DNA from: Candidatus Caldarchaeum sp.
GTDB taxonomy: Archaea > Thermoproteota > Nitrososphaeria_A > Caldarchaeales > Caldarchaeaceae
Direction: 5' to 3'
DNA: 49,218 nucleotides
Assembly: GCA_038844785.1 (NCBI GenBank)
Contig: JAWBRA010000013.1
Location: 1-49,218, forward strand
The notes under the pieces are model-generated. The model had not been told where the DNA came from. It did not search any database and saw only the letters and a program-made list of their open reading frames with translations. A program made the translations under genes and the position numbers. Shown in pieces: positions 10,891-12,384 of this stretch (within the stretch, counting starts at the first letter, position 1; every line of letters begins with the position of its first letter).

Positions 10891-11410
10891 GTGAGTATAA
10901 TAATCGTGAGTATACCTTTCTACGACCGCGAAGAGGAGCTTCAAACCCTCATAGAGGCGGTTGACTCGCCGAGGGCTGAGCTCGTGATAATATACGGTCG
11001 GCGGAGGATAGGGAAGACGACGCTGGTGAGAAGGCTGCTGAGCGATCGGAAGGGTGTCTACTTGTATGTTGAGGTGCTTTCTAAACTGTTGAGAGGTTTC
11101 ATGGTTGGTGTTTACTGGGATAGGGAAGGAGATGAGATTGACGTGGCTGCTATGAGAGACGGGGCAGCACTATTCTTTGAATGTAAAACCGCTGGCGTCA
11201 GAAGAGAAGATGCAGCCCTTTTCAAGGGAAGAGCTGAGCATGTGGCGAAGAAGCTTAACTTGAAGAAAGCGGCAATACTGTTTCTGGTCCCCCAATCATC
11301 TGAGAGAGGTTTACGGGGTGAACGTAATCGGTCTTAGAGAGCTGTTGGAGAAGCCGGACAGGCTTAGGGAGGTGTTAGCGCTGGCTGAGACTAGCCATCT
11401 GAAAACGTAG
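10891..11410 (+). pseudogene. Archaeal ATPase (ATPase_2/DUF234 family), internally deleted and frameshifted
   Basis: FYDREEEL...IIYGRRRIGKT is joined after about 60 aa to the C-terminal YWDREGDEIDVAA...FFECK domain. The tail VYGVNVIGLRELL lies in another frame, ending at 11410. Confidence 0.75.
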
Positions 11411-11510
11411 CGGAGAATGCGATGCCGTAGGGTTTGGAAACATCATGTCAGCCTTGAAATCATTGAGACAGGGCTAAACAGCTAAATGAAGGCCTGGCAC
11501 ATTTTCTGAC

Positions 11511-11592
11511 GCCCCACCACCGCCTTAAGCATCGCCTGAGACACGGTGCATCACCCGTCGATGAAGCGGTGAGTTAGGTGGTGGGGACAACT
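11511..11592 (+). ncRNA. Box H/ACA pseudouridylation guide RNA (single hairpin), predicted target 23S rRNA helix 69
   Basis: 10-bp stem CCCCACCACC (11512-21)/GGTGGTGGGG (11577-86), then ACA (11587-89). Pocket GCCTTAA/GAGTTA. K-turn boxes CTGA (11536-39) and GATGA (11560-64). Confidence 0.8.
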
Positions 11593-11598
11593 GTTAGG

Positions 11599-12384
11599 TC
11601 ACCTGATTTTTTCAACAACGGCCTCCGTATAGAAGTCAAAAAACCTGATATATCCTCTCTTTCGGTAAAACAGTACGCCGATGAGGAGGTCTAGCGGGAG
11701 TAAGAAGATTTTGCCGCCGTTCCTTATGGCTGATTCAATAAGACTAATCTTGGTTCTGTCCACCTTTACAACCCTTATCCCCATCAAATACTTCCCTGGC
11801 GTTTGACCTTTATACGCCTCTAGGACGGTAACAAAGACGTAAACGGCGAAGAATATGTGGGCATAAGTGCCTATAAGACGGAAGACAAGTTCACCGACTA
11901 TGGGTATGTGCTCGTAATGGAAAAGCCATGGATGCCCGGCAGGCACTTCACTGAGATGTGCTATAATCTCTATTATGCTACCCCATAAGAGTGGGTCAAG
12001 AAACACTCCTGAAAATATGAAAAATATGGTCGCATCCACTATGAATGCAGCGATGCGCAGAGCGATTATGTCAGCACTTAGTCTAGGCATTTGTGCTAGT
12101 TGCTCTGCGCTACTCGTCTGCAACGATTCATGCATCGTTTGGAGGGCTCTTATGGCCAGCCTGCCCCTCTCCGAGAGGATGTATGTTCCCTTCGGAGTGT
12201 GATCCAGTAGGTTCTTAAGTCTACGTAGGTGGAAGTTCAGCGTGCCCTCACCTACCTTACAAACCTCAAGCAGGTCGGTGTAAGAAACCTCCACCCTATC
12301 ATACACTGTCTTTAGAATAAGCCGCCTAACACGATGGTTTAACGCTTCAACAATATCTTCTACAGCGTCCTCGAATTCGGTCAC
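11599..12384 (-). CDS. ArsR-like winged-HTH fused to an RDD-family membrane domain
   Basis: ALNHRVRRLIL...GTLNFHLRRL...YILSERG, then RIAAFIVD, GQTPGKYLMGIRVV, IRN, and RFFD (RDD motifs). Confidence 0.85.
   Translation of the reverse strand: MTEFEDAVEDIVEALNHRVRRLILKTVYDRVEVSYTDLLEVCKVGEGTLNFHLRRLKNLLDHTPKGTYILSERGRLAIRALQTMHESLQTSSAEQLAQMPRLSADIIALRIAAFIVDATIFFIFSGVFLDPLLWGSIIEIIAHLSEVPAGHPWLFHYEHIPIVGELVFRLIGTYAHIFFAVYVFVTVLEAYKGQTPGKYLMGIRVVKVDRTKISLIESAIRNGGKIFLLPLDLLIGVLFYRKRGYIRFFDFYTEAVVEKIR

Follow-up and report, generated by a model that had tools for sequence, protein, structure and literature searches.

The stretch of DNA analysed here (referred to below as the window) comprises 49,218 nucleotides (nt) of contig JAWBRA010000013.1 from the assembly GCA_038844785.1 of Candidatus Caldarchaeum sp., a member of the order Caldarchaeales. 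An upstream open reading frame (ORF) on its plus strand ends at position 11337, a convergent ORF on the minus strand ends at position 11599, and in the intergenic space between them lies a single hairpin (11512-11589, plus strand), which consists of a 10-base-pair (bp) lower stem, an internal pocket, an upper stem of 5-6 bp, a kink-turn (K-turn), an apical stem and an ACA trinucleotide. We are highly confident that a separate gene at this locus encodes a box H/ACA guide small RNA (sRNA) of the classic archaeal single-hairpin type, about 79 nt in length, and it is quite probable that the target of this guide is the UCU in the 3' strand of helix 69 of the 23S ribosomal RNA (rRNA). It is a known kind of RNA, specified by a conserved small RNA gene, for which we know of no earlier description from the hot-spring Caldarchaeum lineage. 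The different parts of the gene are as follows (n and b denote positions on the non-bulged and bulged strands of the K-turn).

11511..11589, plus strand: predicted H/ACA sRNA gene (hairpin and ACA), the 3' end being uncertain
11512..11521, plus strand: lower stem, 5' strand CCCCACCACC, in perfect 10-bp pairing with 11577-11586
11522..11529, plus strand: 5' guide strand GCCUUAAG, pairs with 23S (C)UUAAGGU (E. coli 1924/1925-1931)
11530..11535, plus strand: upper stem (H2), 5' strand CAUCGC, pairs with 11566-11571
11536..11539, plus strand: non-bulged strand of the K-turn, with an extra C11536, U11537 (3n), G11538 (2n) and A11539 (1n)
11540..11559, plus strand: apical stem-loop (C-stem of the K-turn)
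11560..11565, plus strand: bulged strand of the K-turn, with the 3-nt bulge GAU, G11563 (1b), A11564 (2b) and A11565 (3b)
11566..11571, plus strand: upper stem, 3' strand GCGGUG, its G11571 being common to the stem and the 3' guide
11571..11576, plus strand: 3' guide strand GAGUUA, pairs with 23S UGACUC (1917-1922)
11577..11586, plus strand: lower stem, 3' strand GGTGGTGGGG (RNA form GGUGGUGGGG)
11587..11589, plus strand: ACA box, directly after the lower stem

Most of these elements were pointed out in a first-pass annotation of the window, and the 10-bp basal stem, the ACA, the pocket, the upper stem and the CTGA (11536-11539) and GATGA (11560-11564) of the K-turn are all present in the sequence. 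The two pocket strands which it named (GAGUUA and GCCUUAA) are also present, but G11571 was counted by it in both the upper stem and the 3' guide; depending upon where this base is placed, the hairpin has either a 6-bp upper stem and a 5-nt 3' guide or a 5-bp upper stem and a 6-nt 3' guide. The K-turn site has the GAU bulge and the G.A and A.G pairs, the upper stem being of 5 or 6 bp with one further pair past a bulged C, and it is a putative binding site for L7Ae. RNAfold recovers the same hairpin with an energy of -40 kcal/mol (z = -2.67), and 3 of 200 shuffled sequences fold equally well. A perfect 10-bp stem followed by ANA is found 29 times in the genome, as compared with 5-12 times in five mononucleotide shuffles. 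Because the bare architecture of a stem plus ANA is thus not rare, it is by itself evidence of little weight and the case for this gene rests on its conservation. The Rfam search that had been proposed did not yield any family, there being zero matches for the whole window at gathering thresholds and for the region 11300-11800 (501 bases) at E <= 10, and the RNA is not a member of the Rfam H/ACA families (e.g. HgcE, HgcF and HgcG) as defined by their covariance models. A protein-coding reading of the region was discarded, as no ORF of at least 40 amino acids (aa) covers 11511-11592 on either strand. No transfer RNA (tRNA) genes were found in the window, nor any functional link between the neighbouring ORFs and the hairpin.

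In BLAST searches, the hairpin was identified in 9 of the 12 genomes from the same genus. A MAFFT alignment of 10 same-genus copies (referred to as A2) has 94.2% of its cells paired and shows compensatory changes in 5 of the 10 lower-stem pairs; its covariation score was reached by none of 500 shuffles, and control alignments in which the 3' partner had been slid were 38-55% paired. RNAalifold, run on A2 without guidance, recovered the lower stem, the apical stem and four pairs of the upper stem. The covariance model built from A2 gave matches in 34 of the 76 genomes of the order, while a second model (R2), which was built from 30 aligned matches, gave exactly one match in each of 51 of these 76 genomes, the matches by family being 14/17 in f1, 3/19 in f2, 2/4 in f3 and 31/35 in f4; the search at the level of the class covers the same 76 genomes. 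When the 30 copies were fitted to the covariance model, 95.4% of the cells were paired and 18 of the 23 pairs showed compensatory changes, with both sides changed across the order in 7 of the 10 pairs of the lower stem and 6 of the 7 pairs of the apical stem. Covariation is seen in each of the three helices, and the two guide strands are conserved. The first-pass annotation had named a lack of the stem and ACA in relatives as a refutation; the hairpin is found in 51 of the 76 genomes, and an ANA box is present in 30/30 homologs (18 ACA, 5 AUA and 7 AAA), displaced by one base in some genera of family f4. The 5' guide reads CCUUAAGC in 23 of the 30 homologs and CCUUGAGC in 6 others, with a different sequence in the remaining one; the base preceding CCUUAA varies between G, A, C and U (G.U or A-U being formed opposite U1931), and in most copies the base opposite U1931 is G or A. 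The GA of the K-turn is present directly 5' of the apical stem in 28 of the 30 homologs (G011 has CA and G058 has AA), and the bulged strand conforms to N-A/U-U-G-R, as searched by a regular expression, in 29 of them, the remaining one being UGUGAA.

The protein partners expected for an RNA of this kind are encoded in the same genome. Cbf5 was identified by NF003280 (317.8 bits versus a cut-off of 242), and genes for Nop10, Gar1 and L7Ae are also present. The single-hairpin archaeal H/ACA architecture which had been assigned to the locus is likewise supported. The Gar1 match (G000:C33:7125-7346, plus strand, 38.1 bits) contains one in-frame TGA, for which a sequencing error, a split gene and a boundary effect are possible explanations.

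The flanks of the hairpin contain two further features, whose roles in initiation and termination are predicted from their positions.

11482..11489, plus strand: putative TATA-like promoter box CTAAATGA, preceding the predicted start of the RNA by about 26 nt
11607..11612, plus strand: oligo-T run TTTTTT, inside the 3' end of the convergent ORF 11599-12384 (minus strand)

In each of the 20 homologs inspected, which represent all four families, an A/T box precedes model position 1 by about 20 nt (variants are ATAAATC, CTATATC, ATTAAAA, TTTTAAG and similar). The TATA-like box probably acts as the promoter, and on the basis of its position the RNA should start near 11510-11512. T-runs occur 10-30 nt downstream in several homologs, and the TTTTTT at 11607-11612 is a likely archaeal terminator. 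Four metatranscriptome runs were tried for evidence of the RNA. The runs X1, X2 and X4 gave 0 reads, which is no test of expression, since the organism is not shown to be present in them. From run X3, about 5% of which was read, 7 reads were obtained, all oriented as the plus-strand RNA would be in dUTP-type or most stranded libraries, with a depth of 1-3 over 11300-11588 and zero from 11589 onwards. Three of the reads, which represent two start sites, join position 11585 (or 11586) back to 11511 (or 11512), and the ends of this permuted joint are both ends of the lower stem, giving a 75-nt form. This suggests either a 75-nt circular form of the RNA or end-to-end template jumping by the reverse transcriptase; the 5' end of the sRNA (11511/11512) was set from this joint and the spacing from the TATA-like box. 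A circular H/ACA RNA, sR109, has been reported in S. solfataricus (PMC3326292). With regard to the upstream ORF (10891-11337, plus strand, 148 aa), it matches only positions 1-49 of 225 of an archaeal ATPase_2 profile, plus a weak piece of DUF234, and it has the appearance of an ATPase gene that is truncated or decayed; its 3' end and the next 170 nt are covered by RNA reads.

The 23S gene of this organism is absent from the 57-contig assembly (as searched with RF02540), and none is present within 17 kb downstream of the 16S gene. Due to this, the target had to be inferred from relatives, viz. from the 23S of same-genus genomes (the region was found in four) and of others within the order. The 23S region reads GGGAGUAACUCUGACUCUCUUAAGGUAGCC in families f1, f3 and f4, and the guide strands pair with it through UGACUC (one G.U), an unpaired UC and UUAAGGU (one G.U), so that 13/13 pairs are formed, 11 of which are Watson-Crick. 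This complete pairing is seen in the 23S of L003-L006, and the same target is present in the exons of the same-genus 23S. In the genome itself, U sites with 13/13 pairs number 3 of 859,795, each with only 9 Watson-Crick pairs, and the best match in its own 16S locus (the gene with 1.5-kb flanks) is 11/13. When the registers were made flexible, the helix 69 site ranked first and second in the 23S of L003 and L005; the next best sites lie outside the rRNA genes and no site with at least 10 pairs is found inside the organism's own 16S. The 3' strand of helix 69, which the first-pass annotation had named as the target, is therefore the best complement of the pocket in the rRNAs scanned. The target string which it gave (UAACUCUCUUAAGG) does not occur in any 23S examined, the real sequence being GUAACUCUGACUCUCUUAAGGUAGCC, and the pattern TAACT[CT]..TT[AG][AG]GG[CT] is absent both from the genome and from the 23S loci of eight relatives. 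The guide and its target also covary, as the GAGUUA of this genus forms a U.G pair where the GAGUCA of genus g8 forms C-G, the 23S of g8 also having UGACUC. With regard to the 16S gene, its match (G000:C7:41700-44906, minus strand) extends over 3.2 kb versus a 1.48-kb model, contains about 1.7 kb of insertions and is intron-bearing.

The 23S positions are numbered here through a gapless alignment to the E. coli 23S gene, in which the UCUC is 1921-1924, and for the pseudouridines of the helix 69 loop we use the conventional numbers. By this numbering, the target uridine of the first-pass annotation is E. coli 1923, the equivalent of a known archaeal and eukaryotic pseudouridine site. The number 1917 for the loop pseudouridine of E. 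coli is also given in PMC11077068. According to the same source, U2066 of the S. islandicus 23S rRNA, which is equivalent to yeast 2266, is a pseudouridine; U2060 (E. coli 1917) is located 6 nt before it, and the modification disappears when the H/ACA guide sR148 is deleted.

By analogy with the solved and reconstituted archaeal H/ACA ribonucleoproteins (RNPs), L7Ae would bind to the K-turn, both pocket strands would pair with the 3' strand of helix 69 and its continuation, and Cbf5 would convert one or two uridines of helix 69 to pseudouridine. One or both of U1921 and U1923 may be modified. In this genus the modified base would be U1923, possibly together with U1921 in the manner of the UVUN pocket of H. 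volcanii sR-h45, and we lean, though not strongly, towards the modification of U1923, with or without U1921. The pocket can be placed on the target in two registers. In register (i), U1923 and C1924 are unpaired between duplexes of 6 and 7 bp, the target is at a distance of 16 nt from the ACA, with a 5-bp upper stem. In register (ii), U1921, C1922 and U1923 are unpaired between duplexes of 4 and 8 bp (G11573-A11576 with C1920-U1917, and G11529-G11522 with C1924-U1931), the distance is 14 nt and the upper stem is of 6 bp. The 16-nt spacing from the ACA to the target which was stated in the first-pass annotation is right for register (i), but it is the 14-nt register that is common to all 30 homologs.

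The published rules bear on both of these registers. In Pyrococcus, as described in PMC2377435, RNAs with an upper stem of 5-6 bp and an ANA-to-U distance of 14-15 nt are functional and those with 13 and 17 nt are non-functional; UNN is functional with the first U modified, and the 3' duplex is the more important one. PMC7075261 gives a spacing rule of n+15 +/- 1 and reports that one pocket with an unpaired UVUN, the fourth base of which may pair, leads to two pseudouridines when the ACA is present. The UCU(C) at the target fits this UVUN rule. Register (i) is favoured by the guide of g8, since GAGUCA is fully Watson-Crick to UGACUC. However, its pairing is contiguous only in this genus and g8, a U.U mismatch adjoins the target in g4-g7 and two mismatches are present in g12-g14, and its 16 nt, though inside n+15 +/- 1, is outside the 14-15 nt that is functional in Pyrococcus. 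Register (ii), on the other hand, has only 3-4 pocket pairs on its 3' side, the side which PMC2377435 calls more important.

It is also possible, although we hold this tentatively and consider it rather unlikely, that U1921 is the sole base modified by the same H/ACA guide through register (ii), the additional complementarity to U1921 and C1922 being incidental. Register (ii) is available in 30/30 homologs with its spacing constant at 14 nt, and this is so even in g12-g15, where the ANA is displaced by one base and the guide G opposite C1920 is displaced likewise. A distance of 14-15 nt is the functional range in Pyrococcus, where UNN with its first U modified also functions (PMC2377435), and the most 5' unpaired U is the one that is converted (PMC7075261). 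Further, in genera g2, g9 and g10 the 23S copies that were read have C1921 and the guide was found in 0/16 genomes, whereas g8, the sister genus of these three, has U1921 and the guide in 3/3 genomes. However, this distribution, though suggestive, may represent a single evolutionary event in g2, g9 and g10. In addition, the 3' duplex for U1921 alone would be just 4 bp (one G.U) unless pairs of the lower stem open, and the site mapped in archaea to date is the equivalent of 1923, with no 1921 equivalent being given for S. islandicus in Table 1 of PMC11077068. In this genus and g8, the two bases at distances of 15 and 16 nt from the ACA are the exact complement of U1921 and C1922, which would be unexpected for positions that remain unpaired. 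It may be added that in the 23S of g2, g9 and g10 (L090-L093, L104 and L105) helix 69 has a G1909-C1921 pair (UGACCCUC) in place of A1909-U1921.

In yeast, snR3 and snR84 are the guides for the 25S pseudouridines 2264 and 2266; these are eukaryotic H/ACA snoRNAs of the two-hairpin type which lack K-turns, and each site has its own snoRNA. The same two positions of helix 69 are in question here, the equivalence of 2266 being taken from PMC11077068 and that of 2264 being obtained by counting. In its architecture, the RNA described here is like Pab91, Pab160/Pf9 and Pab19 of Pyrococcus and sR115 and sR435 of S. islandicus, which combine a lower stem of about 10 bp and an upper stem of 5-6 bp with a pocket, a K-turn and an ANA that directly follows the lower stem (PMC2377435, PMC11077068). 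Like these classic sRNAs, it has a bipartite guide leaving UN or UNN unpaired, and all four RNP proteins are encoded; it differs from them in showing no sequence or Rfam match, in its target site and, for register (i), in a distance of 16 nt versus their 14-15 nt. Pyrococcus has only one pseudouridine in the helix 69 loop (2016, for which Pab40 motif 3 is the guide), and the 3' strand of its stem contains none. The closest counterpart in terms of target is sR148 of S. islandicus, for which the target is the U1923 equivalent (U2066), the upstream duplex is of 6 nt and the UAACUC/UGACUC repeat is used (PMC11077068). However, sR148 is atypical, whereas the RNA described here is a classic hairpin with both guides and ANA, the two being compared by their descriptions only. 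Stem-loop 2 of H. volcanii sR-h45 resembles it in having a UVUN-type pocket in helix 69; sR-h45 yields two pseudouridines two bases apart and needs the ACA for this (PMC7075261). Nevertheless, sR-h45 is a double hairpin which acts on the loop of helix 69 (E. coli 1915 and 1917) at 17 and 19 nt (PMC7075261), whereas in the present case the positions are in the 3' strand of the stem (1921/1923) at 14 and 16 nt, and a dual modification would be predicted by this likeness.

Besides the missing 23S gene and the features of the registers described above, a number of observations weigh against an H/ACA guide directed at helix 69. In A2, RNAalifold adds four invariant pairs within the pocket, CUUA with UGAG, with no covariation behind them. 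The ACA is replaced by AAA in seven homologs (genus g4), the K-turn lacks the 2n G in the same-genus copy G011 and has GG for GA in several g4 copies, and among the 9 distinct same-genus rows, 6 have a mismatch at the second pair of the upper stem. No copy of the guide was detected in 3 of the 12 same-genus genomes (which are 78-90% complete) or in 25 of the 76 genomes of the order. The RNA support is thin, viz. 7 reads from one run, the permuted joint leaves out the ACA, and as reads are also found upstream (11300-11503), co-transcription with the upstream ORF is possible.

We consider it improbable that the RNA is an H/ACA guide which mainly serves some other RNA, such as a tRNA or an sRNA, or U1917 through the 3' guide alone in the manner of sR148. 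GAGUUA is perfectly complementary to UAACUC (1911-1916), which is located just before U1917, the single 3' guide of sR148 serves the equivalents of both U1917 and U1923 (PMC11077068), and guides with multiple targets exist (sR435, PMC11077068; PMC2377435). However, for U1917 there is no partner of the 5' guide, and no solution with at least 3+3 pairs exists in any of the 30 homologs; an explanation of this kind leaves the invariant 5' guide CCUUAAG unexplained, and the GAGUCA guide of g8 mismatches UAACUC. Very improbable is the suggestion that the hairpin is a K-turn that binds L7Ae for a different purpose, as a 3'-untranslated or processing element or an L7Ae-titrating RNA, with a fortuitous match to helix 69: although the upstream reads, the ordinary nature of the stem plus ANA architecture and the ability of the pocket strands to pair partly together are in keeping with it, the pocket strands are the most conserved part of the RNA across four families while its stems covary, the complementarity is of a level reached by 3 of the 859,795 U sites in the genome and coincides with a known pseudouridine site (PMC11077068), the hairpin has its own conserved TATA-like box, and it is retained while the upstream flanks differ between genomes.

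The target of the proposed helix 69 guide is also a site at which the 23S gene is frequently interrupted. The 23S segment was found in 41 of the 76 genomes. An interruption at the C1924 site (query position 93) is present in at least 15 genomes, and a 16th can also be seen; small introns located two to three bases further on are present in at least 5 genomes, with a sixth also seen, and altogether at least 21 of the 41 genomes have a 23S gene that is broken inside the target. Of the four same-genus 23S, those of G003, G008 and G009 have an intron at large subunit (LSU) position LSU/1923, and that of G012 is without it. In L008, L009 and L010 the intron is 764-1137 nt long; that of L009 (4251-5387) is 1137 nt and is nearly filled by an ORF of 363 aa (L009:4282-5373) with two LAGLIDADG motifs. 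GACUCU of exon 1 pairs with GGAGUC of the intron, with a U.G at the junction, and the intron ends in G; the whole pairing of exon 1 with the 5' end of the intron is of about 16 bp (GCCGGG/UAAC/GACUCU) and covaries in L008. A group I intron of subgroup IB4 at LSU/1923 is listed for an Aigarchaeota genome in Table 1 of PMC6125680. The assignment of these introns to group I is thus based on the P1-like pairing with its U.G, the terminal G, the covariation in L008 and the entry in that table. A bulge-helix-bulge intron was also considered, and none was found at the junctions by eye or by cofolding. The Rfam model Intron_gpI gave no match on L009:4150-5500 at E <= 0.01.

In the lineages that bear this intron, more than 0.7 kb separates one half of the target from the other, and the guide could then act only after the rRNA has been spliced. 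If exon 1 ends at U1923, then the target U will be the uridine of the 5' splice site and the two arms of the guide will be on different exons. These points can be combined in a joint proposal, viz. that the guide reads a splice junction, that U1923 is the uridine of the P1 U.G pair, that the pseudouridylation of helix 69 is licensed by excision of the intron alone, that an unpaired UCU allows one classic hairpin to give both of the eukaryote-type stem pseudouridines (1921 and 1923) and that part of the RNA exists as a 75-nt circle without the ACA; we regard it as unlikely that all of these would hold together. If they do, the binding of the RNP or a pseudouridine at the ligated junction might disfavour reverse splicing. 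A second type of intron, of about 44-630 nt, is found at about 1926-1928 in L095, L097, L098, L100, L103 and L108 (genera g4, g6, g14 and g15); it starts with CGGGG... and ends with ...CCCGGGAGAAA, and it also splits the guide target.

No H/ACA sRNA from Aigarchaeota was found in the literature searched, and the publications which join Caldiarchaeum with pseudouridine are, to judge by their titles and abstracts, not concerned with guide RNAs. The covariance model of this family, with its single match per genome in 51 of the 76 genomes, can be used for annotating the order. Both eukaryotes (yeast 2264 and 2266) and Sulfolobus are known to have pseudouridines in the 3' strand of the helix 69 stem, and the guide described here predicts them in an archaeal lineage other than Sulfolobus, by means of a classic rather than an atypical guide. 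Further, the target coincides with a hot spot for rRNA introns, and nature thereby offers a way to test in what order splicing and modification occur. The existing knowledge of how H/ACA RNPs work is left unchanged by these results.

A different hairpin of about 75 nt is repeated in the same genome. It has the form GGAAAGGCCG...CGGCCTTTCC followed by ATA or AGA, with an inner stem of GGACCGTATC/GATACGGTC, and its copies are located in G000 at C4 (75, minus strand), C37 (75, minus strand), C36:13562 (plus strand) and C33:14862 (plus strand). Two of these copies are at contig ends, which points to a mobile or repeat element at which the assembly is broken.

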